Source: Alphaproteobacteria bacterium (GTDB lineage Bacteria; Pseudomonadota; Alphaproteobacteria; UBA828). From it: DNA of 64,000 nt. The stretch covers positions 864,001 to 928,000 of the forward strand of contig CBDCQT010000013.1 of assembly GCA_965220745.1 (NCBI GenBank). The letters run 5' to 3'. The notes below the pieces were generated by a model. That model did not search any database. It was not told the origin of the DNA and was given only the letters and a program-made list of their open reading frames with translations. Position numbers and translations under genes: made by a program. Of the stretch, positions 15,248 through 30,609 are shown one piece after another. The stretch's first letter is position 1. Every line of letters begins with the position of its first letter.

Positions 15248-15279
15248 ACCGTGGTGCGACGACGGGCGTTCGCCTCTCC

Positions 15280-15792
15280 TTAACTCTGGGCAGGCAACCG
15301 TTCACCAAACGACTTCCAGATCGGCTCGATGCCGTTCTCCCGCAGGAACTCCTCGGCCATCGCGACGATTTCCGCCTCCCGGAACGCATAGAATGCGTCG
15401 ACGGCGTCCTCGTCTCTGACGTCCCGTTTCCACTTGCCGATCGAGCCCCTGTAGGCGTCCTCCGCCTGTTGTCTCCGCTCCTTGTCGCGGGTCCAATCCG
15501 AGACCAGGAATCGCCTGAGAATCCGATGGTGATCGTCGTGATCGAGGCCGGGAATCTCCAGATAACGCTCCGGCTCGGCGTCGACTGCTTCGCGCTCCTG
15601 GCGATTCTCCTCGGCGGGTATGCCGACCTCCATTTCGGCGTCGTCGTCCGTCTCGTAGAGCCAGACGATGCCGCCCGTCTGCCGGTCGAGGTAGACCACT
15701 TGCGGATATGTATCGTGGAAATCCACGTCGCGGCCGAAGGCCATCGTAAAGAGACCCTTGTCTATGCCCCCGCCACCGTCTCCGTCAGCCAT
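15280..15792 (-). CDS. UPF0158-like hypothetical protein
   Basis: YLDRQTG, PERYLEIP and AEEFLRENGIE patterns resemble UPF0158. Confidence 0.6.
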   Translation of the reverse strand: MADGDGGGGIDKGLFTMAFGRDVDFHDTYPQVVYLDRQTGGIVWLYETDDDAEMEVGIPAEENRQEREAVDAEPERYLEIPGLDHDDHHRILRRFLVSDWTRDKERRQQAEDAYRGSIGKWKRDVRDEDAVDAFYAFREAEIVAMAEEFLRENGIEPIWKSFGERLPAQS

Positions 15793-15894
15793 GTGCGCGA
15801 CGCCCCTCTCCGATACCGGTTAGCGCGGCGATGCGCGTAGCCAGCCGCGCGGACTTGCCTATATCATGCTCGTCACAAAAGGGGGGATAGACAC

Positions 15895-18015
15895 ATGGCA
15901 GAGACCACCGTCTTCAGCGCTTGTCCTCACGATTGCCCAGACACATGCGCCATGCTCACTACCGTCGAGGACGGCAGGGTGACCCAGGTGCGCGGCAATC
16001 CCGACCACCCGTTCACTCAGGGCGGTCTCTGTGTCAAGGTCAACGACTACCAGAATCGGGTCTATAGCAAGGATCGCGTGCTGCATCCGCTGCGCCGCAC
16101 GGGAGCGAAGGGCGCCGGCGAATTCGAACAAATTTCCTGGGACGACGCGCTTGAGGAAATTTCGCGCCGTTGGAACGACATCATCGACAAGGACGGGCCG
16201 AGCACCATCGTGCCCTACAGCTATCTCGGCACCGAGGGCATCCTAAACGGCCTCAATTCCGGCGATGCCTTCTTCAACAAGCTCGGCGCTGCCGTCTCGG
16301 AACGGACCTTCTGCGACTCTGCCGCGATCACGGCCTTCTTCATGTCCTGCGGGCCGACCGCCGCGGTCGATCCCGAGAGTTTCGTCTACTCGAAGTACAT
16401 CGTCCTTTGGGCAATCAACACCATCAGCAACAACCTGCACCACTGGCCCTTCATTGCCGAGGCACAGCGCCGCGGAGCCAAGGTGGTGGTGATCGATCCG
16501 GTCGCGACCCGCACGGCAAAGCAGGCCGACTGGCACCTGCCGATCAAGCCCGGCACCGACGCCGCTCTGGCGCTCGGCATGATCAACGTGATCATCGCCG
16601 AGAACCTGGTCGATCACGACTACGTCGAGAAGTACACCGTCGGCTACGACGAGCTGGCCGAGCGTGCGGCGAACTTCCCGCCGGATAGGGTCGCTGAGAT
16701 CACCGGGATTGCGGCCGACGACATCCGCACGCTGGCGCGGGAGTTCGCGACCACGCAGCCCTCGGTAATCCGCATGGGCGTGGCGATCGAACGCAACGCA
16801 TCCGGCGGCAACGCCGTGCGGGCGATGTCCTGCATCCCAGCACTGGTCGGCTCCTGGCGGCATTGCGGCGGCGGCATCCTGCACATGCCGATCTGGGCCT
16901 TCCCGATGAAGTGGGACGATCTCAGCCGCCCCGACTGGATCCGCGAAGGCACACCGGTGATCAACCAGTGGCGGCTCGGCCCGGCGCTCGCGGGCGAGCT
17001 CGACCACAAGGTCAATTCGCTCTTCGTCTACAACTCGAATCCGGTTGTGGTGGCGCCGGAGCAGGACAAGATGCTGCAGGGTCTCGCGCGCGAGGATCTG
17101 TTCACCGTCGTGAGCGAGCACTTCCTCACCGATACTGCGCTCTACGCCGACATCGTGCTGCCCGCCACCACGCAGCTGGAGCAGTTCGATCTCATGTTCT
17201 CGTGGGGGCACCTCTATCTGACCCTCAACGAGCCGGCGATCGCGCCGCTCGGCGAGGCGGTGTCCAACACCGAGCTGTTCCGGCGCCTGGCCCGCGCCAT
17301 GGGCTTCAACGACCCCTTCTGGGATCGGTCGGACGAGCAAATGGCGCTCGATGCCCTGGACTGGGACAACCCGGTGCTGGAGGGGATCGACCTCGATGGC
17401 TTGCGCCAGACCGGCTATGCCCGGCTCAAGGTCGGCTCGCCGGAGGAGTTCGTACCGCACCGCGAGGGCAACTTCCCGACGCCCTCCGGCAAGATGGAAT
17501 TCAAGTCGTCCGTTGCCGAGGCCGCCGGCAACATGGTGCTGCCGCTGTTTCGCCAGGGCTATGCCGCCGATCAGTCGGGCGAGCCGCTGGACCCGTTGCC
17601 AAACTTCATTCCGCAGAACGAGTCAGCGCGCACCAACCCCGAGCTCGCCGCGCGTTATCCGCTCAACATGCTCTCACCGAAGGCCCACGCCTTCCTCAAC
17701 TCGTGCTACGCCAATATGGATACCCAGCTTCATCACGCCGGCGAGCAGATGGTGATGATCAATCCGAGCGACGCGGGTGCCCGCGGCATCGCTGATGGAA
17801 ACGCGGTGCAGGTCTTCAACGACCGAGGCGCATTCCATGCGGTGGCGCACGTTAGCGAGGACGCAAGCCCCGGTGTCGTGGTCGCACCGCTCGGCTATTG
17901 GGCGAAGAGCAGCCCCAACGGCCGCACGGTGAATGCCATCAACCCGCCGGCCTTCGCAGACTACGGCAACGCGCCGACCTTCTCCGACACGCTGGTGGAG
18001 GTGAGCGCGGTTTAG
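15895..18015 (+). CDS. Molybdopterin (Mo-bisPGD) oxidoreductase, DMSO reductase superfamily, cytoplasmic
   Basis: CPHDCPDTC...LCVK 4Fe-4S motif, TDTALYADIVLPA, C-terminal MopB-CT domain; no Tat signal. Confidence 0.9.
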   Translation: MAETTVFSACPHDCPDTCAMLTTVEDGRVTQVRGNPDHPFTQGGLCVKVNDYQNRVYSKDRVLHPLRRTGAKGAGEFEQISWDDALEEISRRWNDIIDKDGPSTIVPYSYLGTEGILNGLNSGDAFFNKLGAAVSERTFCDSAAITAFFMSCGPTAAVDPESFVYSKYIVLWAINTISNNLHHWPFIAEAQRRGAKVVVIDPVATRTAKQADWHLPIKPGTDAALALGMINVIIAENLVDHDYVEKYTVGYDELAERAANFPPDRVAEITGIAADDIRTLAREFATTQPSVIRMGVAIERNASGGNAVRAMSCIPALVGSWRHCGGGILHMPIWAFPMKWDDLSRPDWIREGTPVINQWRLGPALAGELDHKVNSLFVYNSNPVVVAPEQDKMLQGLAREDLFTVVSEHFLTDTALYADIVLPATTQLEQFDLMFSWGHLYLTLNEPAIAPLGEAVSNTELFRRLARAMGFNDPFWDRSDEQMALDALDWDNPVLEGIDLDGLRQTGYARLKVGSPEEFVPHREGNFPTPSGKMEFKSSVAEAAGNMVLPLFRQGYAADQSGEPLDPLPNFIPQNESARTNPELAARYPLNMLSPKAHAFLNSCYANMDTQLHHAGEQMVMINPSDAGARGIADGNAVQVFNDRGAFHAVAHVSEDASPGVVVAPLGYWAKSSPNGRTVNAINPPAFADYGNAPTFSDTLVEVSAV

Positions 18016-18099
18016 ATCCTCGGCCTGCGCCAGATCGTTCGCCTCCACCGGGCCGGGCCGAGCACGGCAGGGACGCATGCGCGCGGGAAGGGTCGGAAC

Positions 18100-18972
18100 A
18101 TGCTCGCGAAGCACGAAGTCGATGCGTTCTGGCGCGATGGCTTTATCGTTGCCGAGAACGCGGTCGACCGCCGCCAGCTCACGCGCCTGCGGGGCGTCCT
18201 GGCCGGATGGGTCGACGAAAGCCGCGGCCGCGACGCGCCATTCGGCGAGCCGACCACCGACGGGCGGCCGCGCTTCGACCTGGCGCCCGAGCACAACGCG
18301 AAGCAGCCCGCACTCCGACGGGTCAATAACCCTAGTGAGATCGACGACGCCTACATGGAGGCGATGCGCGATTCGGCGATGACCGACATGGTCGCCGCCC
18401 TCATCGGCCCCGACGTCAAACACCATCACTGCAAGATCAACCTCAAGCTGCCCGGCTCCAACACCGAGGTGCGCTACCACCAGGACTTCGCCTACACGCC
18501 GCACACGAACGATGATGTCGTGACCGCTCTGCTCATGCTCGACGACATGACGCCCGAGAACGGCTGTCTCATGGCGGTGCCCGGCAGCCACCGCGGACCG
18601 GTGTACTCGCTCTTCGACGGCGAGCGCTTCACCGGTTTCGTCGCGCCCGCCGTGGAGCGCTCGTTACGCGAGCACGAGGTGCCCGTTCTCGGCAGCGCCG
18701 GCAGCGTCTGCCTGATGCACACCCGGCTCGCGCACGGCTCTGAGCCCAACCGCTCGTCAGCGCCGCGCGGTCTCTACATCTGTGTCTACAGCGCTGCGGA
18801 CGCGTTCCCCATCGCCCGCAACCCCATGCCGAACCGCAACGAGGGCATGATGGTGCGCGGCCGGCCTACGCGCCGTGCCCGCCTCGCCGAAGCGACCATC
18901 GAGCTGCCCGAGCAGCCGATGCGCGCGTCGTTCTTCGCCGTGCAGGAGGAGGCCGGCGACTCCGCGTCCTGA
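18100..18972 (+). CDS. Phytanoyl-CoA dioxygenase (PhyH) family Fe(II)/2-oxoglutarate dioxygenase
   Basis: YHQD, ENGCL..VPGSH, HGS.PN.S..PR. Confidence 0.9.
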   Translation: MLAKHEVDAFWRDGFIVAENAVDRRQLTRLRGVLAGWVDESRGRDAPFGEPTTDGRPRFDLAPEHNAKQPALRRVNNPSEIDDAYMEAMRDSAMTDMVAALIGPDVKHHHCKINLKLPGSNTEVRYHQDFAYTPHTNDDVVTALLMLDDMTPENGCLMAVPGSHRGPVYSLFDGERFTGFVAPAVERSLREHEVPVLGSAGSVCLMHTRLAHGSEPNRSSAPRGLYICVYSAADAFPIARNPMPNRNEGMMVRGRPTRRARLAEATIELPEQPMRASFFAVQEEAGDSAS

Positions 18973-18991: not shown

Positions 18992-19387
18992 TTACGGCCG
19001 CCGTGCCAGCAGGTCGATCTCGACGCGGGCATCGAGGGCGAGCCCGGTGACGCCCACGCACGTGCGCGCCGGGCGCCGCTCGGGATCGAAATAGGTCTCG
19101 TAGACCGCGTTCATCGCCGCGTAGTCCTCCTTGAAGTGCGTGAGATAGACCCGCGCGACGAGGACGTGCTCGAGCCCGAGGCCGAAGGAGCCGAGCACGA
19201 TCTTCAGATTGGCCATGACGTTGTGGGTCTGGCCTTCGATGCCGTCGGGGAGCGGCGCGGCCTCGTCGTCGGGGTCGTTGGGCATCTGGCCGGTGACGAA
19301 CACCCATTCGTCGGCTTCGACCGCGTGGCTGAAGGGCGCGACGGGCGTGGGTGCGCCGGCCGCCATGTGGAAGATCGGTGCTGTCAT
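18992..19387 (-). CDS. RidA/YjgF family protein
   Basis: PFSHAV, VFVTGQ, MNAVY, RPARTCVGV, VEID. Confidence 0.9.
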   Translation of the reverse strand: MTAPIFHMAAGAPTPVAPFSHAVEADEWVFVTGQMPNDPDDEAAPLPDGIEGQTHNVMANLKIVLGSFGLGLEHVLVARVYLTHFKEDYAAMNAVYETYFDPERRPARTCVGVTGLALDARVEIDLLARRP

Positions 19388-19414
19388 GGGATTCCTCTCG
19401 TCGTGCGGGCGCGG

Positions 19415-19909
19415 TCAGGCCTCGACGGTGTGGAGCATGACCCGGAGCGCTCGCGCGAGCTCCTCCTTCTCCGCGGTGGAGAGGTCGCGGGTGATCTCGC
19501 CTTCGAGCGCGTTGAATCGGGGAAAAATCTCGCGCACGGTGGCGATCCCCGTCTCGGTCGCCTCCACCAGCACCCGCCGGCCGTCGGCGGCATGGGGGCG
19601 GCGGGCGGCGAAGCCCAGCCCTTCCAGGGTCTTCACCACGCCGGTGAGGGTGCTCTTGGAGATCCCCGATTCCTCGGCGAGGACGTTGGACTCCTTCGGC
19701 CCCCAGACCCACAGCACCCAGAGCACCGTGAAGCCCGAGAATGAGAGGCGGTACTCGGCGAGCAGGTTGCGCTCCATGTAATTGCGCACCGCGTTAGCCA
19801 CACGAAAGACGTTGGAGACGGCCGCGAAGGCGTCGACATCAATGCCCAGCCCCTCGACCCGCGCGCGGGCCTCGCGCTCCTCGCGCGTGAGCGCAACCTC
19901 CCTGCTCAT
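19415..19909 (-). CDS. MarR family transcriptional regulator
   Basis: C-terminal 164 aa of ORF 19415..20737: SKSTLTGVVKTLE..G...R....DGRR winged helix; ATG overlaps the upstream stop. Confidence 0.9.
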   Translation of the reverse strand: MSREVALTREEREARARVEGLGIDVDAFAAVSNVFRVANAVRNYMERNLLAEYRLSFSGFTVLWVLWVWGPKESNVLAEESGISKSTLTGVVKTLEGLGFAARRPHAADGRRVLVEATETGIATVREIFPRFNALEGEITRDLSTAEKEELARALRVMLHTVEA

Positions 19910-20727
19910 GCGTCGGTGCCCCCGATCTCGGGGAGGTTTCTCCGCTCCAGCGTCGTGCCGCCTCGCCAGGACATGGCGACCTCGCGCCAGTAGCCCGCGA
20001 TCAGCTCGCGGGGCTGCAGCCGGGTGAGCTCCTCCACCGGGGAGTCGCCGATCCAGAGCTCGAAGCTGCCGCGGAAGCAGCGGCCGATCTCGCCCTCGTA
20101 GGCGGACATGGTCACCAGCTCGTCCAGGCTGTCGCTGCCGTCGCCCTCGATCGCGGGCATCCAGCGGTTGTGCACCATCGGCAGCGCGTTGACGAAGCCG
20201 GCATGGTCGCTCTCGGCCTCGATCTCGAAGGTCGCGTGCAGCAGGCGGCGGTCGTTGGCGGCGAGGCTCGCGCCGAAGCGCCCGCCGGGCTCCAGGCCCG
20301 GCCCGGCCCGGCCCACCGTGACCGGGCGGGTGAGATAGATCGAGCCGAGCTTCTTGGGGTAGCCCTGGTGATGGCCGCGCACCATGGCGTAGTCGGTATC
20401 GACCCAGATGTAGGCGCAGCGCGAGTAGTGCCGGCCCCGGTACTTGCAGCGGATGACGACGAACATCTCCCGGTACTGCGCACGGACGGGGTCGAGCAGC
20501 TCCTCGAAGGTGTCGGAGCAGCTCTGCCACTCGGCCCAGATGAGCGCCACGGCGCCGGGGTCTTCGTCTGCCGGCGCGAGACCGGGCGGGATCAGCGCCG
20601 CCACCGCGTCGGGGTCGGTGCGGTATTCCAGCGTGAGCATTTGACCGGAGTAGTGCCACGGCACGGGCGGCAGCAGGGAGGCGCGGCCGCTGCCGGAGCG
20701 CGGGAACATGAAGCCTTTGAGGGACAA
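19906..20727 (-). CDS. Acetoacetate decarboxylase-like family protein
   Basis: PWHYSG, YRTDP, YIWVD, GYPKKL Schiff-base Lys motif. Confidence 0.85.
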   Translation of the reverse strand: MSLKGFMFPRSGSGRASLLPPVPWHYSGQMLTLEYRTDPDAVAALIPPGLAPADEDPGAVALIWAEWQSCSDTFEELLDPVRAQYREMFVVIRCKYRGRHYSRCAYIWVDTDYAMVRGHHQGYPKKLGSIYLTRPVTVGRAGPGLEPGGRFGASLAANDRRLLHATFEIEAESDHAGFVNALPMVHNRWMPAIEGDGSDSLDELVTMSAYEGEIGRCFRGSFELWIGDSPVEELTRLQPRELIAGYWREVAMSWRGGTTLERRNLPEIGGTDA

Positions 20728-20782
20728 GACGAATCACTCCCGGAATCGCGACGATTCCTTGTCTTTCGCAATCGTCGATCCT

Positions 20783-20802
20783 ATCGTCAGGGACCGAACG
20801 AT
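20783..20802. promoter_or_regulatory. Putative MarR operator, copy 1
   Basis: ATCGTCAG-ggac-CGAACGAT imperfect palindrome in a divergent promoter; same motif at 25796-25815. Confidence 0.6.
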
Positions 20803-20821
20803 TTCAAGCCGAGGGCCAGCC

Positions 20822-21670
20822 ATGACGGAGTTCCGGCGCATCCTGCTCGACGGTTACCCCGCCGTCGTGACCAGAGACGGCGAGCGCCTGCACGCGAAGG
20901 ACGGACGCTCGGTCGCGGTGGAGGATGCGATCCACCTGCCGCCGACGGAGCCGCGCAAGATCATCTGCGTTCACCTCAACTACCAGAGCCGGGTGGACGA
21001 GTTCATGGCGACGCTGCCGGCGACGCCGACTTACTTCCACAAGCCGGTGAGCGCGCTCTGCGGGCACGGCGCGCAAGTGGTACGGCCCGAGCGCTGCCAG
21101 TGGCTGAACTACGAGGGCGAGATCGCCATCGTCATCGGCTGGCACTGCCGCAACGTCGCGCGCGACGAGGCCGCTGACTACATCGCGGGCTACACCATCG
21201 CCAACGACTACGGACTGCACGACTTCCGCGACACCGACGCGGGCTCCATGCTGCGGGTGAAGGGCTCGGACACGCTCTGCCCGGTCGGCCCCGCACTGGT
21301 GAGCGACTGGGACTTTCGCGGCAAGTCCGTCCGCACCTACGTCAATGGCGCCCTCGCCCAGGACGGAAACACGGACGAGATGGCGTGGGACATGCACTAT
21401 CTCGTGGCCGACATCGCCCGCAACATCACGCTTGAGCCCGGCGACTTGCTGCTCTCCGGCACGCCCGCCAACAGCCGGCCGGTTGAGCCGGGCGACGTCG
21501 TGCGTGTGGAGGTGGACGGGCTGGGCGCACTGGAGAACGAGATCGTACAGGGCCCGGCGCCGATCCGCGACGATGTCGGCGCCCAGCCCACGAGCTCGGA
21601 GGAGGTGATGTCCACCGCGCTCGGCGGCGACTGGGAGCTCCGCGGCATTCGGGCCCCGCGCAAGTCGTAG
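20822..21670 (+). CDS. Fumarylacetoacetate hydrolase family protein (HpaG-like)
   Basis: KIICVHLNY, YEGE, GYTIAND, KGSDT, LEPGDLLLSGTP. Confidence 0.9.
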   Translation: MTEFRRILLDGYPAVVTRDGERLHAKDGRSVAVEDAIHLPPTEPRKIICVHLNYQSRVDEFMATLPATPTYFHKPVSALCGHGAQVVRPERCQWLNYEGEIAIVIGWHCRNVARDEAADYIAGYTIANDYGLHDFRDTDAGSMLRVKGSDTLCPVGPALVSDWDFRGKSVRTYVNGALAQDGNTDEMAWDMHYLVADIARNITLEPGDLLLSGTPANSRPVEPGDVVRVEVDGLGALENEIVQGPAPIRDDVGAQPTSSEEVMSTALGGDWELRGIRAPRKS

Positions 21671-21677
21671 CGCGGCG

Positions 21678-23141
21678 TCAGGCGGTGGAGCTCTCCAGGA
21701 TCTGCAGGGTCTTCAGGTCGCTGTGGAAGTCGAGGGCGTAGTCGCCGCCTTCCCTGCCGATGCCGCTGATGCCGCAGCCGCCGAAGGGCGCGCTCAGGTC
21801 GCGGACGAGGAAGCAGTTGACCCAGACCGTGCCCGCGCGCACCCGCCGCCCGATGCGCTCAGCCCTCGCCGCATCGCCGGTGTAGACGACCCCGGCGAGC
21901 CCGTAGCGCGTGCCGTTGGCAAGCGCCACTGCCTCGCCTTCGTCCGCGAAGGTTTGCAGGGTCAGCACCGGGCCGAACACCTCGTGCTGCACGATCTCGG
22001 CCTCGTTGCTGCGGGGCTCGATCAGGGTCGGCTCGTACCAGAGCCCGCCCTCCCGGGTGACGTGCCCGCCTCTCAGCACTCGGTCTCCCGCCGCCCGCGC
22101 CCGCTCGACGAAACCGTGGACCCGCGCGAGGTGCTCGGGATGAATCAGCGGAGAGAGCGTGGTGCCGGGCTCGCGGCTGTCGCCCGCCACATGCTGCTCG
22201 GTGTAGGCGAGCATCCGTTCAAGGAACTCCTCGCGGACCGCGTCCTCCACCAGGAGGCGGGTGCCTGCCAGGCAGACCTGCCCCGAGTCGTCGTACTGGC
22301 CGGCGGCCTTGCGGGCGGCGGCATCGAGGTCGGAGTCGGCGAACACGATGAAGGGGCTCTTGCCGCCAAGCTCCGCCGTGAAGGGCACGATGTTGCGGGC
22401 GGCGGCGGCCCCAATCTGCCGGGCGGCCTCGGGCGAGCCGGTGAACGAGATGCGGCGCACCCGCGGGTCCGCGACCAAGGCTGCGCCGACCTCCTCGCCG
22501 AGCCCCTGGACCACGTTGAAGACGCCGGGCGGGAAGCCGGCCTCGTCCACCAGATCGGCGAGCAGGGAGGCCGTGATCGGCGACCACTCGGCAGGCTTGA
22601 GGATCACAGTATTGCCGGCGGCGAGCGCCGGCGCGCACTTCCAGGTCGCGAGCATGAAGGGCGCGTTCCAGGGCGTGATGATCACCGCGGGGCCGGCGGG
22701 CATGCGCAGCACACGGTTGGCGGTGCCGTTGGAGTTCCAGGCCCGCGGCTCGTAGTCGCAGGCGAGGTCGGCGTAGGCACGAAAGTTCCGCGCCCCTCGG
22801 GGGATCACCCGCAGCTCCAGACTCTCCTGGAGCATCGCCATGTCGAGGCATTCGAGCCGGGCCAGGGTGGCGACGTTCGCGTCGATGAGCTCGGCGAGGC
22901 GGTGCATGTACGCCGCCCGCTCGGCCGGGCCCTTCGCCGACCAGCTGGGGAAGGCGTCCGCCGCCGCGCCCACCGCCTGCGCGGCGGTCGCGGCATAGCC
23001 CGCTGCGAAGTCTCCGAGCTTCCGAGACCAGTCCAGCGGCGAGCGGTCCTCGAAGCGACGCGCCGAGGGCACCCGGCGCCCTGCGATGTAGTGATCGGGT
23101 GAGACGGAGACACCGTCGACGTCGATCCGGGGCGCAGTCAT
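21678..23141 (-). CDS. Aldehyde dehydrogenase (HpaE / hydroxymuconic-semialdehyde dehydrogenase-like)
   Basis: TPWNAPFML, KPAEWSP, FTGS, ELGGKSP, GQVCLAG, EVFGP, SGIGREGG. Confidence 0.9.
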   Translation of the reverse strand: MTAPRIDVDGVSVSPDHYIAGRRVPSARRFEDRSPLDWSRKLGDFAAGYAATAAQAVGAAADAFPSWSAKGPAERAAYMHRLAELIDANVATLARLECLDMAMLQESLELRVIPRGARNFRAYADLACDYEPRAWNSNGTANRVLRMPAGPAVIITPWNAPFMLATWKCAPALAAGNTVILKPAEWSPITASLLADLVDEAGFPPGVFNVVQGLGEEVGAALVADPRVRRISFTGSPEAARQIGAAAARNIVPFTAELGGKSPFIVFADSDLDAAARKAAGQYDDSGQVCLAGTRLLVEDAVREEFLERMLAYTEQHVAGDSREPGTTLSPLIHPEHLARVHGFVERARAAGDRVLRGGHVTREGGLWYEPTLIEPRSNEAEIVQHEVFGPVLTLQTFADEGEAVALANGTRYGLAGVVYTGDAARAERIGRRVRAGTVWVNCFLVRDLSAPFGGCGISGIGREGGDYALDFHSDLKTLQILESSTA

Positions 23142-23181
23142 CGGCTCCTCCGCTCTATGCCGTGCGGGTCGAGGCGCGGTG

Positions 23182-24468
23182 CTAGAGGAAGTTGAGGTAG
23201 CGCGACATCTCCCAGTCCGTCGTGCTGCCGAGGTAGTCGTCCCACTCCTTGCGCTTGATCCCGATGTGGTTCGCCACCAGCAGCGCGCCGATCGCGGCGA
23301 CCAGCGCGTCGTCCTGCTCCAGCGCGTCGAGCGCCGCGCCCAGGTTCCCGGGCACGGCGACGTCTGTATCGACGCTCTCCAGCCCGTCGCCGGTCTCCGC
23401 CGGCGGCAGTGGATAGCCGTTCTCCACCCCGAGCCGGGCCGCCCGCAGCATGGTCGCCGCGGCGACATAGGGATTGGCGGCACCGTCAGCCACGCGATGC
23501 TCGATGCGCGTCGCCGGTCCGCGTTCGCCGGGCACCCGCACCGCGACGCCGCGGTGGTCGTATCCCCAGTTCGCCCAGTAGCCGGCGAGACTCGCCGGGC
23601 GGAGCCGGCGGTAGGAGTTGACGGTGGGCGCGATCAGCCCGGCCATGGAGCGGTGATGGTGCATGAGCCCCGCGATGCACTGCCGGGAGAGGTCGGAGAG
23701 GCCGTCCGCCTGCGCGGGGTCGGCGCAGGCGTTGTGCCCGTCCTTGTCGGCGAAGCTGAGGTTGAGGTGGACCCCGCTGCCGCCGCGATCCGAGAGCGGC
23801 TTCGGCATGAAGCTGAGCAGATAACCCCGTTTCGCCGCGACCTCGCGGGCCATCAGCCGGAAGAGGAAGATGTCGTCGATGGCCCCGAGCGCGTCCCGAT
23901 AGCGCAGCGTGAACTCGAACTGCGGCCAGTCGAACTCGGAGTTGATCGCCTCCAGCGGGAAGCCGCAGGCCTCCGCCTGCGACCAGATGCCGTCGACCAG
24001 CCCGGCGGGGTCGACCGCAGCGCCGGTGCCGTAGACGTAGGCGCCGGGGGTGTCGTAGGGCACCCAGTTGCCGGTGGAATCGCGCTCGAAGACGAAGGCC
24101 TCGAGCTCGATGCCGAGGAAGGGCGCGAGCCCCGCCTCCTGCCACGCCGCAATCGCGCGGGCGAGCGCGCCCCGTGCGCAGAGCCCGAGCGGCTGCCTGT
24201 CCTTCTCCAGGTTCGCCACCACCACGCCGGTGCCGGGCTCCCAGCCGGGCCGGACTCCGTCGAGGTCGAACACCGCCTCCATGTCCGGCAGGCCTTCGGG
24301 CACACCCGATCCGGGGGCGGGGATCAAGGCACGCTCGTAGTCCACGGCGTAGACCCCGACGCACTGACGGAGCGTGCCGGACTCGGCCATTGCGCGTGGG
24401 ACGTACTTGCCGCGCGCGAGGTTCAGATGGTCGCAGAACAGGACCCGAATGCGTTCGTAGTCGCTCAT
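23182..24468 (-). CDS. Glutamine synthetase-like gamma-glutamyl ligase
   Basis: GIELE, QFE, SFMPKP, GSGVHLN, PTVNSYRRL, WGYDHR, RIEHR; no GSI adenylylation motif seen. Confidence 0.85.
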   Translation of the reverse strand: MSDYERIRVLFCDHLNLARGKYVPRAMAESGTLRQCVGVYAVDYERALIPAPGSGVPEGLPDMEAVFDLDGVRPGWEPGTGVVVANLEKDRQPLGLCARGALARAIAAWQEAGLAPFLGIELEAFVFERDSTGNWVPYDTPGAYVYGTGAAVDPAGLVDGIWSQAEACGFPLEAINSEFDWPQFEFTLRYRDALGAIDDIFLFRLMAREVAAKRGYLLSFMPKPLSDRGGSGVHLNLSFADKDGHNACADPAQADGLSDLSRQCIAGLMHHHRSMAGLIAPTVNSYRRLRPASLAGYWANWGYDHRGVAVRVPGERGPATRIEHRVADGAANPYVAAATMLRAARLGVENGYPLPPAETGDGLESVDTDVAVPGNLGAALDALEQDDALVAAIGALLVANHIGIKRKEWDDYLGSTTDWEMSRYLNFL

Positions 24469-24498
24469 GCCAAGCGCCCTATCACTCGGCCGCGCCGG

Positions 24499-25758
24499 TC
24501 AGCAGGTCACCGACACCGGCAGGTACTTGATGCCATTGATGAAGTTGGATCGGAGCCGGAGCGCCTGACCGGCCGGCCGGAGCGTGCGCACCCGGCGCGT
24601 CAGCTCCTCCAGCACGATGCGCAGCTCGAGCCGCGCCAGCCAGAGGCCGAGGCAGAGGTGCGGCCCGCCCCGCCCGAAGGCCATTTGCGGGTTGGGGTCG
24701 CGCGCGAAATCGGCGTTGTAGGGATCGTCGAAGACCCGCTCGTCGAAGTTGCCGGAGATGAACCACAGGATCACCTTGTCGCCCGCCGCGATGGTGCGCC
24801 CGTGCATGTCGAAGTCTTCCACAGCGGTGCGGCGGAAGTGCATGGTGGGCGACGAGATGCGCAGCAGCTCCTCCACCGCCGTGGCCCAGAGCGCCTCGTC
24901 GGCGCCCTGAAGCTGCTCGAAGAGCCGGGGCTCACGGGCGAGGAGGTCGACAGAGGAGGCAACCGCATAGCGCGTGGTGTCGTTGCCCGCCACCACCAGC
25001 AACGTGAAGAAATTCTTGAACTCGTGGTCGGTGAGCGGCTCGCCGTCCCGGTCGGGCTCAAGCAGAAGGCTGATCACGTCACCGCGCGGCTTCCCGCGTC
25101 GGAGCGCGGCCTGGCGCTCCGCGTACTCGAAGACCTCCGCACCGGCCGGCGAGCGGAAGGGCATGAGGCGGAAGGCGTCCGTGTCGGTTTGGTCGACCAC
25201 GTGGTCGGTGAAGTCCGGGTCGCTGTTCGCCATCATCTCGTCGCCCTTGTCGGCGAGCCAGGCACCGTCCTCCTCCGACACCCCAAGCACGCCCGCCAGC
25301 ATCAGCATGGGCAGGGGCTTCGCGATCGCATCGACGCAATCGAACTCGTCCTGCTTCAGAGCCTCGTCGAGCACGCGGGAGACGATGGCACGCACCCGGT
25401 CCCGGTAGGTCTCGATGAAGCGGCGCGAGAAAGTGCGGTTGACCAGGCGGCGCAGGCGGGTGTGCTCGGGCGGGTCCTGCTCCATCATGGTCAGGCGCGC
25501 GATCCGCTCCTCTTCCGTCATCTCTTCGAGGCGAATCCCCTGCCGGGTCGTGAACTGCCGGAAGTTCTTGCTGATCTCCGCGATGTCCTCGTGGCGGGTG
25601 ATGGCCCAGAAACCGGAGGCATCGCGCTCGTCGAACCACGCAATCGGGTCGTCGCGCCGCAGCGCCTCGAAGGTCCTGTGAGGCACGCAATCGACGAAGG
25701 AGTCGTGGGAGGAGAGGTCGGCGATCCCCTCCGGCTCGGGAGAAAGAAGCGCGGACAT
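24499..25758 (-). CDS. Cytochrome P450
   Basis: DPPEHTRLR, I-helix AGNDTT, EELLR, MHFRRTA, heme motif FGRGGPHLCLG. Confidence 0.95.
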   Translation of the reverse strand: MSALLSPEPEGIADLSSHDSFVDCVPHRTFEALRRDDPIAWFDERDASGFWAITRHEDIAEISKNFRQFTTRQGIRLEEMTEEERIARLTMMEQDPPEHTRLRRLVNRTFSRRFIETYRDRVRAIVSRVLDEALKQDEFDCVDAIAKPLPMLMLAGVLGVSEEDGAWLADKGDEMMANSDPDFTDHVVDQTDTDAFRLMPFRSPAGAEVFEYAERQAALRRGKPRGDVISLLLEPDRDGEPLTDHEFKNFFTLLVVAGNDTTRYAVASSVDLLAREPRLFEQLQGADEALWATAVEELLRISSPTMHFRRTAVEDFDMHGRTIAAGDKVILWFISGNFDERVFDDPYNADFARDPNPQMAFGRGGPHLCLGLWLARLELRIVLEELTRRVRTLRPAGQALRLRSNFINGIKYLPVSVTC

Positions 25759-25795
25759 GGCGGTCTCGTTTGGTTGCGAACCGGTTGACGGCATG

Positions 25796-25815
25796 ATAGT
25801 TCGGATACGAACGAT
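25796..25815. promoter_or_regulatory. Putative MarR operator, copy 2
   Basis: ATAGTTCG-gata-CGAACGAT (7/8 palindromic) between the divergent P450 and dioxygenase genes. Confidence 0.65.
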
Positions 25816-25901
25816 CTGTCCACCGAAGTCGTTCGCTGTGCGTGCCAGCCGGAGCCGGCGGGCCGGTTCCGGGGCGCAGGCGAGGCGACAAAGGAGGAGA
25901 C

Positions 25902-26786
25902 GTGGGAGACATCGCAGGCGCCGGCTTCCTGTCGCATGTGCCTACGATCATGCTGCCGAAGGCGGTCCGGCTTGCGCTGAACGAGGGGCGCGAGCTGAGC
26001 CTCGTGCCCGGTCTCGAGCGGCTGCGCAGCGAGGTCCTCGACGACCTCCGGCCCGACACCTTCGTGGTGTTCGACACCCACTGGTTCACCACCGTGGAGT
26101 TCATCGTGAGCGCCCACGAGCGCCGCCGGGGCCGCTACACCTCGGGCGAGCTCCCGCGCGGCATTCACGGCCTGCCCTACGACCTTGCCGGGAGCCCGGC
26201 ACTGGCCGCGGGCATCGCAGCGGCTGTACGCGAGCACGCCGGCATACCCTGCATCGCCAACGACGATGCGCACCTGCCGATCCACTACCCCACCGTCAAC
26301 CTCGCCCACTACCTGAACCGGAGCGAGCGCTGGGTCTCCGTCAGCATCTGCCAGACCGCGCGGGACGAGGATTTTCTCGCGGTGGGGGCGGCGCTGGGGC
26401 GGGCAATCGCCGAATCGGACGAGCGCGTGGTGCTGCTCGCGAGCGGAGGCATGAGCCACCGCTTCTGGCCGCTCTCGGAGATCGATCGGCACGAGGCCTC
26501 GGACCCGGTCCACATCCGCACGCCCGAGGCGCGCGCCGCCGACCTCGAACGCCTGGCCTGGTGGGCAGAGGGCGATCACGCGGCGGTCATCGACTCCATG
26601 GACGCGTTCCGCCCCCACAAGCCGGAAGGTCTGTTCGGCCACTACCTGATGATGGTCGCCGCTCTGGGTGGACGCGACTGCACAGCAGCCGGGACGCCGT
26701 TCAGCGACTACGAGAACGCGGCGGGCACCGGGCAGGTGCACGTCTGGTTCCCGCGCCCGCCGCAGGGCTGGAGCGTCGAGGGCTAG
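25902..26786 (+). CDS. LigB/HpaD-family extradiol ring-cleavage dioxygenase (3,4-dihydroxyphenylacetate 2,3-dioxygenase-like)
   Basis: SHVPT, VFDTHW, ASGGMSHRF, GTGQ; GTG after AAGGAGG RBS. Confidence 0.85.
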   Translation: MGDIAGAGFLSHVPTIMLPKAVRLALNEGRELSLVPGLERLRSEVLDDLRPDTFVVFDTHWFTTVEFIVSAHERRRGRYTSGELPRGIHGLPYDLAGSPALAAGIAAAVREHAGIPCIANDDAHLPIHYPTVNLAHYLNRSERWVSVSICQTARDEDFLAVGAALGRAIAESDERVVLLASGGMSHRFWPLSEIDRHEASDPVHIRTPEARAADLERLAWWAEGDHAAVIDSMDAFRPHKPEGLFGHYLMMVAALGGRDCTAAGTPFSDYENAAGTGQVHVWFPRPPQGWSVEG

Positions 26787-26794: not shown

Positions 26795-27259
26795 TCAGGC
26801 TTGGGGAAAGCCGGTGGGGCGGGAGCCGTGGGCGTCCGTGCCGCCTGCGGAGCCGGGATTGCTGTAGTAGATGGTCATCTCGTGGATGAGGCCGTCCCGG
26901 CAGCGGAAGAAGTTGCAGTTGCGAAGGCGTTGCACGCCTACGCTGCGATAAGCTGAGTCGGGCTTCGGCGTCAGCGTGACGAGAAACATCGCGGCGCAGC
27001 GCTCGTTGGCCACGTCCACGTAGTGGACGAACTCGGTGAACCGGGGCTCGTAGTTCGCGAGCAGATGCTCGAAGAAGCGCGGCAGCGGGGTCTCGCCGAC
27101 GGTGGGCCTGGCCTTGAAGAGGCGCGGCGCGGCATCGCCGTGATAGATCGTGACCGAAGCGTCGTCGGTGAAGCAGGCAACCACCGCCGGGATGTCGGCT
27201 TGTGCGACGCTGCCGAAGTAGCGCCGCTCCACCAAGTCCACGTAATCGTCTCTCGTCAT
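26795..27259 (-). CDS. NTF2/SnoaL-like protein
   Basis: VERRYF...D...V.ACFTDDA...FFRCRDGLI.E..IY pattern. Confidence 0.75.
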   Translation of the reverse strand: MTRDDYVDLVERRYFGSVAQADIPAVVACFTDDASVTIYHGDAAPRLFKARPTVGETPLPRFFEHLLANYEPRFTEFVHYVDVANERCAAMFLVTLTPKPDSAYRSVGVQRLRNCNFFRCRDGLIHEMTIYYSNPGSAGGTDAHGSRPTGFPQA

Positions 27260-27284
27260 CGCGCGCCGCTTCCGCCAGCCGGTG

Positions 27285-27614
27285 CTACAGCAGGATTTCG
27301 ACGAAGCCGAGGGCGACCAGCACGGCGGTGAGCAGGATGGCGCCGACGATGGCGGTGACGCGCACCACGCGGCGCACCGGGTTCTGGGTGTTGGCGAAAG
27401 GGATGAGATTGAAGAGGAGCCCGCCGGCCACCACCATGATGCAGCCGGCCGAGAAGAGCGGCCGGTACACGGGCTGGAATATGAAGACCAAAGCGAGCAG
27501 GCAGAGCGCGATGATCGCGATCACGATCAGCCGCGCCGTGCGGCGGGACATGTTACGCCGTGCCGGCTTCTCCTGCGCCGGCGCCTCCTGGGGTTCTGCC
27601 TGTGCCTCGCTCAT
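27285..27614 (-). CDS. Small membrane protein in the ABC transporter operon
   Basis: 109 aa, three hydrophobic segments; ATG overlaps the ATPase stop. Confidence 0.75.
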   Translation of the reverse strand: MSEAQAEPQEAPAQEKPARRNMSRRTARLIVIAIIALCLLALVFIFQPVYRPLFSAGCIMVVAGGLLFNLIPFANTQNPVRRVVRVTAIVGAILLTAVLVALGFVEILL

Positions 27615-28711
27615 GACGCGATCCTCACGCCGTCATGGTCGAACAGATGGACCTGCCCCGGCGTCGGCGCCACGTGCATGGTCTCACCGACCGCGGCCGG
27701 GTGCCCCCGGCTGGTCACCACGCGCAGGTCGTCCTCGCCGATGCGGAGGTGGATCAGGGTCTCCGCCCCCATCGGTTCGATCAGGTCGATCTGGCCCGAG
27801 ATCGTGGTCGGTCCGGCCTCGGATGCGGGTGCCAGTCCGCGCGGGCGCACGCCGACGGTGACCGGAGCATTGCGCCGCTCAACGGTGCCCCGCAGGGAGA
27901 TCTCCGCATGCAGCGGCAGGGCCACCTCTTGCCCCAGCATGTTCACGGTCGCCGTGTCCTCGTCCGCGTCGATGACGTTGGCCTCGACCAAGTTCATCTG
28001 CGGCGTGCCGATGAAGCCCGCGACGAAGACGTTGGCGGGCTTGGCGAAGATGTCGTGCGGGCTCGCCACCTGCTCGATGATGCCGTCGCGCATCACCGCG
28101 ATCCGGTCGGCGATGGTGAGCGCCTCGATCTGATCGTGGGTCACGATCACGGTCGCCTTGTGCAGGCCGTTGAGGAGCTGCTTGATCTGCCCGCGCATCT
28201 CCTGGCGGACGGCAATGTCGAGCCGGCTCAGGGGCTCGTCAAAGAGGAAGCACTGCGGGTCGCGAATGACGGCCCGGCCGACCGCGACGCGCTGCTTCTC
28301 GCCCTCGGCAAGCCGGCCAGGGACCCGGCCGAGCGCATGGGAAAGGTCGAGAAGGCCGGCGATCTCCCTCACCCGACGCTCGATCTCTTCCTTGGTGATG
28401 CGCTCCGCATGAAGGGGGAAGGCCAGGTTCTCCGACACCGTCAGGCTCGGATAGAGCGCGTAGAACTGGAACACCATGGCGATGTCCCGATCGCGCGGCG
28501 CGAGCTCGTTGACCCGCGCACCCGCGATGAAGATGTCGCCCGCCGTCGCGTCCTCGAGCCCCGCGATCATGCGGAGCGTCGTGGTCTTGCCGCAGCCGGA
28601 GGGCCCGAGCAGGCACACAACCTCGCCGGCTTCGACGTCGAGATCGATGTCGTCGACCGCGGCGAGCGAGCCGAAATGCTTGCTCAGGTTGCGCAGCTCG
28701 ATGTCTGCCAT
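27611..28711 (-). CDS. Sugar ABC transporter ATP-binding protein (MalK-like), degenerate signature
   Basis: GPSGCGKTT, FLFDEP, VTHD; signature reads LAEGE. Confidence 0.95.
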   Translation of the reverse strand: MADIELRNLSKHFGSLAAVDDIDLDVEAGEVVCLLGPSGCGKTTTLRMIAGLEDATAGDIFIAGARVNELAPRDRDIAMVFQFYALYPSLTVSENLAFPLHAERITKEEIERRVREIAGLLDLSHALGRVPGRLAEGEKQRVAVGRAVIRDPQCFLFDEPLSRLDIAVRQEMRGQIKQLLNGLHKATVIVTHDQIEALTIADRIAVMRDGIIEQVASPHDIFAKPANVFVAGFIGTPQMNLVEANVIDADEDTATVNMLGQEVALPLHAEISLRGTVERRNAPVTVGVRPRGLAPASEAGPTTISGQIDLIEPMGAETLIHLRIGEDDLRVVTSRGHPAAVGETMHVAPTPGQVHLFDHDGVRIAS

Positions 28712-28718
28712 GGCAGCG

Positions 28719-29588
28719 CTACCGCCTGATGGTGCCGAAGGTGACGCCGCGCAGGAGCTGGTTCTGCAGCAGGAACGTCACGAACACCACCGGGATCAGG
28801 AACAGCGTCTCGATCGCCGCCAGCAGCCCCCAGCGCACGCCGATGTCGCCGCCGATGGTCTGCGCCATGGCGACCGGCACCGTGCGTGTGTCGCGCCCGG
28901 TGAGCAGCAGGGCGAAGAGGAACTCGTTCCAGGTTAGGATCAGCCCGAACACGGCGGTCGCTGCGATGCCCGCCTTCACTTGCGGCAGGCAGATGCGGAA
29001 GAAGATCTTCATCTCCGAGCTGCCGTCCATGCGCGCGGCATCTTCCACCTCGCGCGGTATCTCGTCGAAGAAGCTCTTCATCATCCAGATGGTGAAGGGC
29101 AGGTTGAACGCGGCGTAGAGCAGGATGATCCCGATGTAGCTGCCGCTGAGCCCGCTCAGGCGGAACATGATGAAGATCGGGATGATGACGATGATCGGCG
29201 GCAGCATCCGGGTCGTTAGGATGATGAAGAGGTAGGTCTCGTTGCCCCGGAGCGGCCAGCGCGAGAAGCCGTAGGCCGCGATCGTGCCGATGATCAGCGC
29301 GACCCCGACCGAGGCGCCGGCGATGAAGATGGAGTTGAAGAAGAAGAGGTCGAAGTGGGTGTCCACCGCCGCGCCGCCGCGCTCGTAGGCGCGGGCGAAG
29401 ACGCTGACGAAGTTGTCCAGCGTGGGCGTGAAGATGAACTTGGGCGGGGTGGAGAGCGCGTCGGTGTGGCTCTTGAACGCGGTCAGGATGATCCACAGCA
29501 CCGGGAAGAAGTAGATGAAGCTGATGACCGTCGAGAACGCGGTCCGCCCCCAGCCTGCCTTGCCGATCTCACGCCGTCTGCGGGCCAT
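28719..29588 (-). CDS. Carbohydrate ABC permease (MalG-like)
   Basis: EVEDAARMDG EAA loop, WNEFLFA. Confidence 0.95.
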   Translation of the reverse strand: MARRRREIGKAGWGRTAFSTVISFIYFFPVLWIILTAFKSHTDALSTPPKFIFTPTLDNFVSVFARAYERGGAAVDTHFDLFFFNSIFIAGASVGVALIIGTIAAYGFSRWPLRGNETYLFIILTTRMLPPIIVIIPIFIMFRLSGLSGSYIGIILLYAAFNLPFTIWMMKSFFDEIPREVEDAARMDGSSEMKIFFRICLPQVKAGIAATAVFGLILTWNEFLFALLLTGRDTRTVPVAMAQTIGGDIGVRWGLLAAIETLFLIPVVFVTFLLQNQLLRGVTFGTIRR

Positions 29589-29591
29589 GAC

Positions 29592-30512: not shown

Positions 30513-30560
30513 GCGTCAGGGGCCGGTCAATCTCAATGTTCCGGGCAATCGGTGGGAAGG

Positions 30561-30593
30561 AAAGGGGGCGGCCCCTTATGCGGAGCCGCCCCC
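30561..30593 (-). terminator. Stem-loop after the binding-protein gene (terminator or mRNA-stabilising hairpin)
   Basis: Minus strand GGGGGCGGCTCC-gcataa-GGGGCCGCCCCC followed by TTT. Confidence 0.5.
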
Positions 30594-30609
30594 GTTACCG
30601 CCTCGATCG

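Follow-up and report, generated by a model that had tools for sequence, protein, structure and literature searches.

Eight genes at positions 18992–26786 of a 64,000-nucleotide stretch of alphaproteobacterial DNA (lineage UBA828, assembly GCA_965220745.1, contig CBDCQT010000013.1, here C13, positions 864,001 to 928,000 of the forward strand; the whole stretch is called the window below) encode an enzyme of the ADC superfamily, a MarR-family regulator, a RidA-family protein, an FAH-family enzyme, an aldehyde dehydrogenase (ALDH), a glutamine synthetase (GS)-like ligase, a cytochrome P450 (P450) and a LigB-type extradiol dioxygenase. The six enzyme genes other than RidA form a real gene cluster that is common to bacteria of at least six phyla. 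We propose, with our confidence evenly divided for and against, that this catabolic set has spread horizontally and acts on a phenolic or catecholic arylethylamine (tyramine or dopamine type), which would be degraded via glutamyl capping. What would be new is the joining of meta-cleavage as in the homoprotocatechuate (Hpa) pathway with glutamylation of the Puu and Ipu type, and an ADC-like enzyme in a new role. The first-pass annotation of the sequence had not recognised this combination as a characterised pathway, and we likewise found no published pathway containing it in the full-text literature, subscription-only papers and supplementary files lying outside the search.

The window has a G+C content of 68% and belongs to a 4.8-Mb genome that is 99.96% complete. 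All eight genes were confirmed on the strands given here by Pfam and NCBIfam scans, and codon-position G+C statistics picked the same reading frames; together with a reading of the DNA, by which several start codons (MarR, ALDH, FAH and LigB) were revised, this bore out the originally described layout of eight genes in four transcription units around two divergent regions. The units are ADC-MarR-RidA, FAH, P450-GS-ALDH and LigB, and the divergent regions after start revision measure 94 bp (ADC/FAH, 20728–20821) and 108 bp (P450/LigB, 25795–25902). On the minus strand, the gene for the MppR-like enzyme of the ADC superfamily (19906–20727, 273 aa, PF06314 E 5.7e-53) is followed by the MarR-family gene (19415–19910, 164 aa, PF01047 E 5.2e-11), the ATG of which at 19910 overlaps the ADC stop codon as ATGA, and, 27 bp further on, by the gene for the RidA/YjgF-family protein (18992–19387, 131 aa, PF01042 E 1.3e-30). 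The other minus-strand unit runs in the order P450 (24499–25794, alternative ATG at 25758, 431 aa, PF00067 E 1.2e-18), GS-like ligase (23182–24468, 428 aa, PF00120 catalytic domain E 8e-81) and HpaE-like NAD(P)-dependent ALDH (21678–23141, 487 aa, PF00171 E 4.5e-139), with 30 bp separating the end of P450 (24499) from the beginning of GS (24468) on the same strand and with the ALDH start, an ATG at 23141, preceded by GGAGGAG. On the plus strand lie the single-domain, HpaG-like FAH gene (20822–21670, frame open from 20708, 282 aa, PF01557 E 6.5e-57) and the HpaD-like class III dioxygenase gene of the LigB type (25903–26786, frame open from 25842, 294 aa, PF02900 E 1.6e-21). For FAH the more likely start is the ATG at 20822 behind GAGGG, which gives 282 aa, in line with the annotated homologues (281–296 aa), and for LigB it is the GTG at 25903 behind the ribosome-binding site AAGGAGG (25891–25897).

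Relatives of the ADC-like protein numbered 3762 in the protein collection at E ≤ 0.001, and the best 120 of these were 66–88% identical to it and labelled as Gammaproteobacteria, Acidimicrobiales, Granulosicoccus and Kordiimonas. A pattern scan with one genome per species yielded at least 544 relatives among the 582 pattern matches listed. The locus counts in this study are those of the best 80 of the at least 544 loci, searched by tblastn with the window proteins, 44 of the 80 having full 10-kb flanks; neighbour clusters were counted only if their representatives had a Pfam or NCBIfam match, because antisense open reading frames (ORFs) in high-GC loci otherwise interfere. Across phyla the ADC-like orthologues were 61–96% identical. 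The ADC-like gene was present in 80/80 loci (44/44 with full flanks), FAH in 74/80 (43/44), P450 in 66/80 (41/44), the GS-like gene in 47/80 (33/44), the HpaE-like ALDH in 43/80 (30/44) and LigB in 36/80 (26/44). ADC, FAH and P450 stood together in 62/80 loci (40/44), GS and P450 in 46/80, and all six core genes in 28/80 (20/44). Because many of the 80 loci are no more than short contigs, these counts are on the low side. When five actinobacterial genomes without LigB and GS in the flank were inspected, both orthologues were found in all five (LigB 52–59% and GS 43–54% identical), on the ADC contig and ∼1–18 kb beyond the flank in four, and together on another contig of a fragmented assembly in the fifth.

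Gene order and orientation varied between phyla, and only the divergent FAH/ADC pair was near-constant, with FAH divergent to ADC in 74 of the 80 loci and 65–94% identical. The grouping goes beyond chance, as genes of these families surround the ADC-like gene repeatedly across many phyla, in shuffled order. The P450 and GS-like genes, whose conservation next to the ring-cleavage genes was decisive for the idea of a single pathway, were found beside them in Alpha- and Gammaproteobacteria, Actinomycetota, Acidobacteriota, Chloroflexota and SAR324. By record title, the carriers included Kordiimonas, Porphyrobacter, Novosphingobium, Hyphomonadaceae and Caulobacterales among the Alphaproteobacteria; Arenicellales, Candidatus Poriferihabitaceae, Porticoccaceae, Brumicola/Glaciecola and Woeseiaceae among the Gammaproteobacteria; Ilumatobacteraceae, Acidimicrobiales and Desertimonas among the Actinomycetota; and further members of Acidobacteriota, Chloroflexota and SAR324. 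Many carriers are marine, some are titled as sponge symbionts, and the set also occurs in small-genome marine and freshwater heterotrophs. Of 200 other genomes sampled evenly from the window's class, one carried an ADC-like orthologue at E ≤ 1e-60, and the single sampled member of the window's own family carried none at this threshold. The set is accordingly rare and patchy, and its spread was probably horizontal. In a metagenome-assembled genome labelled as Chloroflexota (L005), the ADC-like gene and its neighbours were 90–96% identical to those of the alphaproteobacterial window, which points to very recent transfer or else to faulty binning. Sequencing runs sharing small parts of the stretch came from sponge, coral and marine metagenomes and one sponge metatranscriptome, from which we drew no conclusion on expression or habitat.

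The best curated-family matches of three enzymes and the regulator all belonged to the homoprotocatechuate pathway (HpaD_Fe, HpaE, the HpaG C-terminal domain and HpaR), each below its cut-off, and the catalytic residues expected for each family were intact in the window proteins and invariant among orthologues. In the canonical Hpa pathway, homoprotocatechuate is cleaved, the semialdehyde is oxidised, the resulting tri-acid is isomerised and decarboxylated, and 2-oxo-hept-3-enedioate is then hydrated and split by an aldolase into pyruvate and succinic semialdehyde (PMC12718150, partial text). The best model for the LigB protein was HpaD_Fe (TIGR02298; 138.2 bits versus a cut-off of 315.95), and comparison with the solved 3,4-dihydroxyphenylacetate 2,3-dioxygenase 8iq8 gave E 5.7e-21, as against 1e-5 and 8.5e-4 for the beta (AmnB) and alpha (AmnA) subunits of 2-aminophenol dioxygenase. 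Residues H32, H80, H206, H246 and E262 (numbered from 25842) were invariant in 35 sequences, and the window's LigB was the single PF02900 match in the whole genome. Among 41 ALDH models, HpaE (TIGR02299) was the best for the cluster ALDH, at 468.9 bits versus a cut-off of 638.35, above the 389 bits on the 2-hydroxymuconic semialdehyde dehydrogenase model; C313, E280 and N182 (numbered from the longer translation starting at 23210) were invariant in 41 sequences. The FAH protein has one FAA_hydrolase domain and scored 206.7 bits on the HpaG C-terminal-domain model (cut-off 276.4) and 145.7 on full-length HpaG (cut-off 811), with E136, E138 and D167 (numbered from 20708) invariant in 73 sequences. 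By family and context it is proposed to be the decarboxylase/isomerase of the oxidised ring-fission product.

The remainder of the canonical gene set was searched for in the window, the genome and the related loci. HpaF (PF02962) had no match in the whole genome; HpaH (TIGR02312) had four weak genome matches, none above the cut-off and none in the window; HpcH/HpaI (PF03328) had seven, none in the window; and both genome matches of HpaB_N lay outside the window. The first-pass statement that hpaBC, hpaF, hpaH and hpaI are absent accordingly holds for the window, while HpaB-family and HpcH/HpaI-family genes occur elsewhere in the genome. Across the 80 related loci, no HpcH/HpaI aldolase was found except one 38-residue fragment at a locus end, and the only HpaH-like matches were to the cluster's own FAH gene. 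One HpaB_N match lies ∼565 kb away beside an HpcH/HpaI-family gene in a different context. This pair, at ∼300 kb on C13, was considered as a canonical hpa cluster and rejected on its gene context: at ∼299–301 kb (L102 7996–11507), there is a small unit encoding an HpcH/HpaI-family aldolase, an HpaB-family flavin monooxygenase and two SnoaL_4 proteins, which adjoins a formamidase and a DUF3047 gene and has no positional relation to the cluster described here.

The ADC-like protein scored 180.3 bits on PF06314 (cut-off 29.8) and 213 bits on the MppR equivalog TIGR04460, under its cut-off of 380, and the closest solved structure was MppR (4jm3, E 1.4e-53). Its residues R117, Q121 and K125, invariant in 21 orthologues, aligned to R148, Q152 and K156 of the 4jm3 chain, the last of which is reportedly the Schiff-base lysine (Burroughs et al., 2013). 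The solved relatives 4zbo/6eej and 5upb are presumably Sbi00515 and Swit_4259. The Swit_4259 cluster of Sphingomonas wittichii was considered as an identity for our locus and rejected, as 5upb matched at only 84 bits, so that the ADC-like protein belongs to another branch of the family. No MppP- or MppQ-like pyridoxal phosphate (PLP) genes were found among the neighbours scanned. To our knowledge, none of the catabolic members of the ADC-like superfamily has been assigned a natural substrate.

Given its position and relatives, we propose that the ADC-like enzyme acts as a hydratase-aldolase at the 2-oxo-acid end of the ring-fission chain. Since an HpcH/HpaI aldolase or a separate hydratase is lacking in the window and, the fragment aside, in the 80 loci, the C–C cleavage would fall to this enzyme. 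Two further observations led us to assign it the role of HpaH and HpaI: MppR itself couples pyruvate with an aldehyde by condensation, and in Saccharolobus two ADC-like proteins (Sso1221/Sso1222), for which an aldolase role has been proposed, are induced ∼80-fold on phenol along with a meta-cleavage pathway (PMC7820114, partial text). An alternative role as a vinylogous decarboxylase is possible.

The GS-like ligase fell short of every curated family, scoring 230 bits on GlnIII (cut-off 470) and 213.5 on gamma-glutamylputrescine synthetase (NF045547, cut-off 650), and its closest solved relatives were archaeal-type glutamine synthetases and the glutamate-methylamine ligase 9qur. The Glu, His and Arg residues typical of GS were invariant in 39 orthologues, and we propose that the protein is an ATP-dependent gamma-glutamyl-amine synthetase. 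For the P450, the closest solved chain was CYP125MRCA (336 bits), followed by CYP124 and CYP125 (∼220–230 bits). It has the heme-ligand C381, the I-helix motif AGNDTT and the ExxR motif, with C381, T273, E309 and R312 invariant in 66 sequences, and it is a plausible candidate for hydroxylating the ring of a long, glutamyl-tailed phenol.

Additional genes recurring in the related loci would supply several functions that such a pathway would call for. An adrenodoxin-type ferredoxin, a ferredoxin reductase or both were found in 15 of the 80 loci, a second ALDH (34–39% identical) in 13, and a gamma-glutamyl-type hydrolase in 20, the hydrolase being of the peptidase C26/PuuD-like type or class I amidotransferase-like (GMP-synthase-like GATase), and sometimes both being present. 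Liv-type ABC importers and ACAD-fold proteins accompany the actinobacterial loci, and MFS transporters and AraC regulators those of Kordiimonas and its neighbours. A cytoplasmic sulfatase was found in 12/80 loci (Arenicellales, Poriferihabitaceae), usually beside a TTT importer, and a group II PLP decarboxylase stood inside the cluster in three. A plasmid of Novosphingobium sp. EMRT-2 has its genes arranged as ferredoxin-ALDH-FAH / ADC ... ALDH-GS-P450 / dioxygenase ... MarR.

Two Streptomyces versions lie on plasmids near non-ribosomal peptide synthetase (NRPS) genes. The Streptomyces canus plasmid carries P450-GS / ferredoxin-reductase-ADC-ALDH-dioxygenase-FAH-TetR, then a second P450, a ferredoxin and an APC permease, and ends with a second ALDH and a PuuD-family hydrolase. 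Plasmid pSLUN1 of S. lunaelactis carries an amino-acid permease, GS, MarR-ADC, a unit of ALDH-dioxygenase-FAH-PLP enzyme and a PuuD-family hydrolase beside an ALDH, with no P450. The S. canus ALDH beside the dioxygenase matched HpaE best (517.6 bits), and the ALDHs beside the PuuD-like hydrolases of S. canus and S. lunaelactis matched PuuC best (568 and 554 bits), PuuC-like and PuuD-like proteins alike staying below the cut-off. The two ALDHs and the PuuD-type hydrolase that our proposed route predicts were therefore present in both Streptomyces clusters. The best matches of the S. lunaelactis PLP enzyme were, below threshold, tyrosine-decarboxylase models. The absence of a P450 would be expected if this version began from a ready-made catechol, and the decarboxylase and amino-acid permease could supply a ready-made catecholamine, making the P450 dispensable. 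After the S. canus cluster (L097, 26472–28777) we also observed a FolD gene, a PurU gene and a gene of the aminomethyltransferase family, a kit for one-carbon units from demethylation that hints at N- or O-methylated amines as substrates in S. canus.

Family membership, gene context and chemistry were combined to derive each step of a route for this gene set. The GS-like ligase would use ATP and glutamate to convert the amine to its N-gamma-glutamyl amide, and the P450, which would require a ferredoxin and a reductase, would hydroxylate the capped phenol to a catechol. The ring would then be cleaved adjacent to the diol by the HpaD-like LigB dioxygenase, the ring-fission semialdehyde oxidised by the HpaE-like ALDH, and the product decarboxylated and isomerised by the HpaG-like FAH enzyme. 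Forming a Schiff base with the 2-oxo acid through Lys125, the MppR-like enzyme would carry out hydration and cleavage in place of HpaH and HpaI, releasing pyruvate and gamma-glutamyl-4-aminobutanal. These are the products in which the Hpa sequence would end if N-gamma-glutamyl-dopamine took the place of the compound with the carboxymethyl side chain. Gamma-glutamyl-4-aminobutanal is oxidised by PuuC and then hydrolysed by PuuD to gamma-aminobutyric acid (GABA) and glutamate, and here a PuuC-like (or the HpaE-like) ALDH and a PuuD-like hydrolase would do the same; the genes for this last step are linked in other loci, and in the window's genome a C26 peptidase is encoded elsewhere. The gene set and its conservation support the originally suggested scheme, in which the P450 hydroxylates or demethylates an amine-bearing aromatic, the amine is glutamylated, the ring is opened and the ADC-like enzyme replaces HpaH/HpaI, with step order and substrate being our deduction.

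The cap itself would have a chemical reason. Ring-opened 3,4-dihydroxyphenylalanine (DOPA) with its amine free condenses spontaneously with the new aldehyde, and dopamine treated with such a dioxygenase gives the cyclic 6-decarboxy-betalamic acid (PMC11376341, partial text). With a free amine the ring-fission product thus becomes a cyclic dead end, whereas an amide nitrogen cannot so condense, and the glutamyl cap would stop the amine from reacting with the ring-opening aldehyde. An HpaE-type dehydrogenase of Acinetobacter baumannii also oxidises succinic semialdehyde (PMC12718150, partial text), and by analogy one ALDH could serve both aldehyde steps here.

Compared with the Hpa pathway of Escherichia coli and A. 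baumannii, the cluster is alike in its extradiol dioxygenase, semialdehyde dehydrogenase and FAH-family decarboxylase/isomerase, in HpaR as the match of its MarR protein and in pyruvate as an end product. It differs in having one FAH domain instead of two, scores that are all below the equivalog level, an ADC-superfamily enzyme for HpaH/HpaI, a P450 for HpaBC and no HpaF, as well as an added GS-like ligase and a side chain that would be a glutamyl-capped aminoethyl instead of a carboxymethyl group. The Puu pathway of putrescine catabolism comprises the ligase PuuA, the oxidase PuuB, the dehydrogenase PuuC and the hydrolase PuuD. The cluster shares with it the gamma-glutamylation of an amine by a GS-like enzyme, the proposed gamma-glutamyl-4-aminobutanal, which is the PuuC substrate, PuuC- and PuuD-like genes in the Streptomyces versions and C26 or GATase hydrolases in 20/80 loci; its ligase falls short of a PuuA equivalog, it lacks an oxidase of the PuuB type, no PuuC- or PuuD-like gene is linked to it in the window, and its aldehyde would come from the breakdown of an aromatic ring, not from the oxidation of a diamine. 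Isopropylamine catabolism (Ipu) in Pseudomonas sp. KIE171 and Arthrobacter aurescens TC1 reportedly uses the GS-like IpuC, the P450 IpuD and the hydrolase IpuF, and is said to place a glutamate cap, oxidise the capped compound with the P450 and remove the cap with the hydrolase. The adjacency of a GS-like to a P450 gene, a feature of this type, is found in the window at a distance of 30 bp; the Ipu system, which is not known to include a ring-cleavage module, has a small aliphatic amine as its substrate, and we liken it to the cluster by gene logic and not by sequence. Aniline degradation of the Atd/Tdn type likewise places a GS-like ligase (AtdA1/TdnQ) and an amidotransferase-like hydrolase before a Rieske-type aniline dioxygenase and meta-cleavage (PMC4539516, partial text). 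The cluster differs from it in that its oxygenase is a P450, no Rieske domain being found among the eight cluster genes or the ten flanking genes scanned, and in that the amine is probably on the side chain and kept through ring cleavage. As for MppR, the Pfam ADC fold and the aligned lysine, arginine and glutamine are shared with the cluster protein, and the MppR reaction is the reverse of the proposed cleavage; the cluster protein stays below the MppR equivalog level and its context is catabolic and not that of enduracididine.

Several points weigh against the glutamyl-capped arylethylamine pathway as we have drawn it. The substrate, the order of the steps and the reaction of the P450 are all read from sequence, context and chemistry, and none of the eight proteins reaches a curated NCBIfam equivalog cut-off. 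CYP125 and CYP124, the nearest solved structures to the P450, act as omega-hydroxylases on the side chains of sterols and branched lipids and do not hydroxylate rings, and the lack of HpaF leaves one isomerisation step without an assigned enzyme. Moreover, no ferredoxin, reductase, gamma-glutamyl hydrolase, second ALDH or decarboxylase is linked to the cluster in the window's genome. A C26 peptidase, a Pyridoxal_deC enzyme and a ferredoxin were tried as the missing partners, but they sit on other contigs with unrelated genes around them, which leaves no means of assigning them to the cluster. A decarboxylase is embedded in only three of the 80 loci, and its best curated match is diaminobutyrate decarboxylase (150 bits versus a cut-off of 900). 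The sulfatase together with the TTT-type carboxylate importer hints at a sulfated or acidic precursor, outside the simple model, and the ACAD-fold proteins and second P450 of some actinobacterial loci have a role that the model does not explain.

An alternative is that the genes form not one pathway but two independent modules, an Ipu-/Puu-like one (GS, P450, hydrolase) acting on an aliphatic amine such as a branched or cyclic alkylamine and an Hpa-like one (LigB, ALDH, FAH, ADC) acting on an aromatic acid. The combination of GS-like ligase, P450 and hydrolase is reportedly the logic of isopropylamine degradation, the nearest solved relatives of the P450 hydroxylate terminal methyls of branched chains, the S. 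lunaelactis cluster does without a P450, and the two groups are separate transcription units in the window. On the other hand, the groups have stayed together in at least six phyla despite reshuffled order and orientation, and the P450 is linked to the ADC-FAH pair (66/80 loci) more often than the dioxygenase is (36/80). Even where the P450 is absent, in S. lunaelactis, the GS-, PuuC- and PuuD-like genes stay with the ring-cleavage genes, while the proteobacterial loci keep no catechol-making hydroxylase besides the P450. As the predicted end product of the joint pathway would moreover be the very substrate of the PuuC-/PuuD-like pair, we regard separate modules as unlikely.

Another way of joining all members would be a single pathway for an arylamine or aminophenol, with the ring amine gamma-glutamylated, the P450 in place of the Rieske dioxygenase, cleavage of the Amn type and RidA as 2-aminomuconate deaminase. 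Such a scheme has precedents, since aniline degradation is started by GS-like ligases and class I amidotransferase-like hydrolases via gamma-glutamylanilide, and the Amn pathway combines a dioxygenase of the LigB type with an ALDH, a deaminase, a decarboxylase, a hydratase and an aldolase (PMC4539516, partial text); GMP-synthase-like GATase genes are also found in related loci, and a RidA gene in the window's ADC operon. Yet RidA is present in only two of the 80 loci, there is no second LigB subunit, the LigB protein is far nearer to homoprotocatechuate dioxygenase than to either Amn subunit, and HpaE, at 469 bits, fits the ALDH better than the model for 2-hydroxymuconic semialdehyde dehydrogenase does. 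The PuuC-/PuuD-like pair and the amino-acid decarboxylases of other loci would be left without a role, and a monooxygenase would presumably be unable to convert an anilide to a catechol in one step, which makes this scheme quite improbable. We give very little credence to a biosynthetic cluster in which the MppR-like, P450, GS-like and DOPA-type dioxygenase proteins would build an N-heterocycle or pigment (enduracididine, betalain-like or pyrroline-type). The closest characterised relative of the ADC-like protein is indeed the biosynthetic MppR, the Streptomyces plasmid copies lie near NRPS genes and LigB-type dioxygenases make betalamic acid (PMC11376341, partial text), but no NRPS, polyketide synthase or tailoring genes are conserved with the set. 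Its importers (ABC, TTT, MFS, APC), small-molecule regulators, two ALDHs and hydrolases are typical of catabolism, it occurs in small-genome marine and freshwater heterotrophs, and an ALDH, an FAH enzyme and a pyruvate-releasing enzyme would dismantle the ring-fission product.

With regard to regulation, the best NCBIfam match of the MarR protein was HpaR, at 36.8 bits versus a cut-off of 121.2, and the MarR of the ADC operon probably controls the gene set in this genome. The divergent ADC/FAH region contains a 17-bp perfect palindrome, GGAATCGCGACGATTCC, at 20742–20758, which is a candidate MarR operator. An exact copy of its 15-bp core occurs once in the 64-kb window, and with up to two mismatches there are four matches compared with 4.68 expected. 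No site like the palindrome and no operator was identified in the P450/LigB intergenic region, and the idea of one operator common to both divergent regions was rejected for lack of a counterpart there. Other MarR-bearing loci have different palindromes at the corresponding position. Because the palindrome is confined to a single region and the orthologous loci have different ones, a common MarR regulon is not demonstrated. The first-pass annotation had placed the whole cluster under this regulator: the MarR gene is present and translationally coupled to ADC, but a homologue stands at ADC in only 29/80 loci (15/44 with full flanks), other lineages using AraC, GntR or TetR regulators.

RidA, which had been counted as a member of the pathway, did not hold that place. 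The protein scored 99 bits on TIGR00004, below the cut-off of 106, its ATG at 19387 is preceded by GAGAGGAA, and a homologue was found in only 2/80 related loci (1/44 with full flanks), so that it is a lineage-specific accessory gene outside the conserved set. RidA, a PhyH-family dioxygenase, a SnoaL-like protein and an ABC importer at the borders of the cluster are common to only one to three close relatives. On the RidA side, an alpha/beta hydrolase, a 706-aa molybdopterin oxidoreductase with an Fe4S4 domain and the PhyH-family Fe/2-oxoglutarate dioxygenase (18100–18972) are encoded at 14432–18972 (plus strand) and converge on the RidA end; they are common only to two close relatives, L003 and L005, and may be a lineage-specific extension of the pathway. 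Directly beyond the dioxygenase, at 26795–33414 (minus strand), lie genes for the SnoaL-like protein, a 109-aa protein without a family match and the ABC importer, which consists of an SBP_bac_1/8 binding protein, two permeases and two TOBE-domain ATPases. Only in L003 were most of these genes found; there the binding protein has no match and the second ATPase is 40% identical, and the importer may be what this lineage uses for uptake.

The tyrosine metabolism of animals, algae and microbes commonly yields tyramine, dopamine and related amines, and in the textbook bacterial route the amine is removed first and the Hpa pathway follows. We suggest tentatively, holding it somewhat less probable than not, that bacteria of at least six phyla mineralise catecholamine-type compounds without prior removal of nitrogen, the compound being capped, hydroxylated by the P450, ring-opened and cleaved by the ADC-like enzyme with release of pyruvate, and its nitrogen-bearing remainder, gamma-glutamyl-4-aminobutanal, leaving through a Puu-type exit to GABA. 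If true, this would explain a gene set recurring in at least 544 species records and give a first physiological role to a catabolic branch of the ADC-like superfamily that is very conserved yet functionless so far. It would also be the first known instance in which a protecting group stays on a compound during meta-cleavage of its aromatic ring, provide new enzymes with which aromatic amines could be turned into GABA and pyruvate, and show how cells avoid the spontaneous cyclisation of ring-opened DOPA or dopamine to dead ends of the betalamic-acid type (PMC11376341, partial text). Cultured carriers include Kordiimonas species, Brumicola pallidula DSM 14239, Novosphingobium sp. EMRT-2 and Streptomyces lunaelactis MM109.

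Elsewhere in the window, at 5107–7401 (minus strand), a 764-aa protein combines an N,N-dimethylformamidase beta-subunit-like C-terminal domain (E 8e-98) with a Laminin_G_3 domain, a further amide- or amine-related catabolic gene in the neighbourhood. At 42816–55723 (plus strand), three large subunits of molybdenum hydroxylases of the xanthine-dehydrogenase/CO-dehydrogenase type (43865–46693, 48189–50597 and 53159–55723) are grouped with one FAD subunit (42816–43727) and one 2Fe-2S subunit (43734–44225), with a tRNA-Pro gene (42521–42597) just before them. Between two of these genes, at 46908–48047 (minus strand), lies an ORF of 379 aa without a Pfam match, which is located in the only low-G+C stretch of the window (54% versus ∼68%) and may be a foreign insertion.

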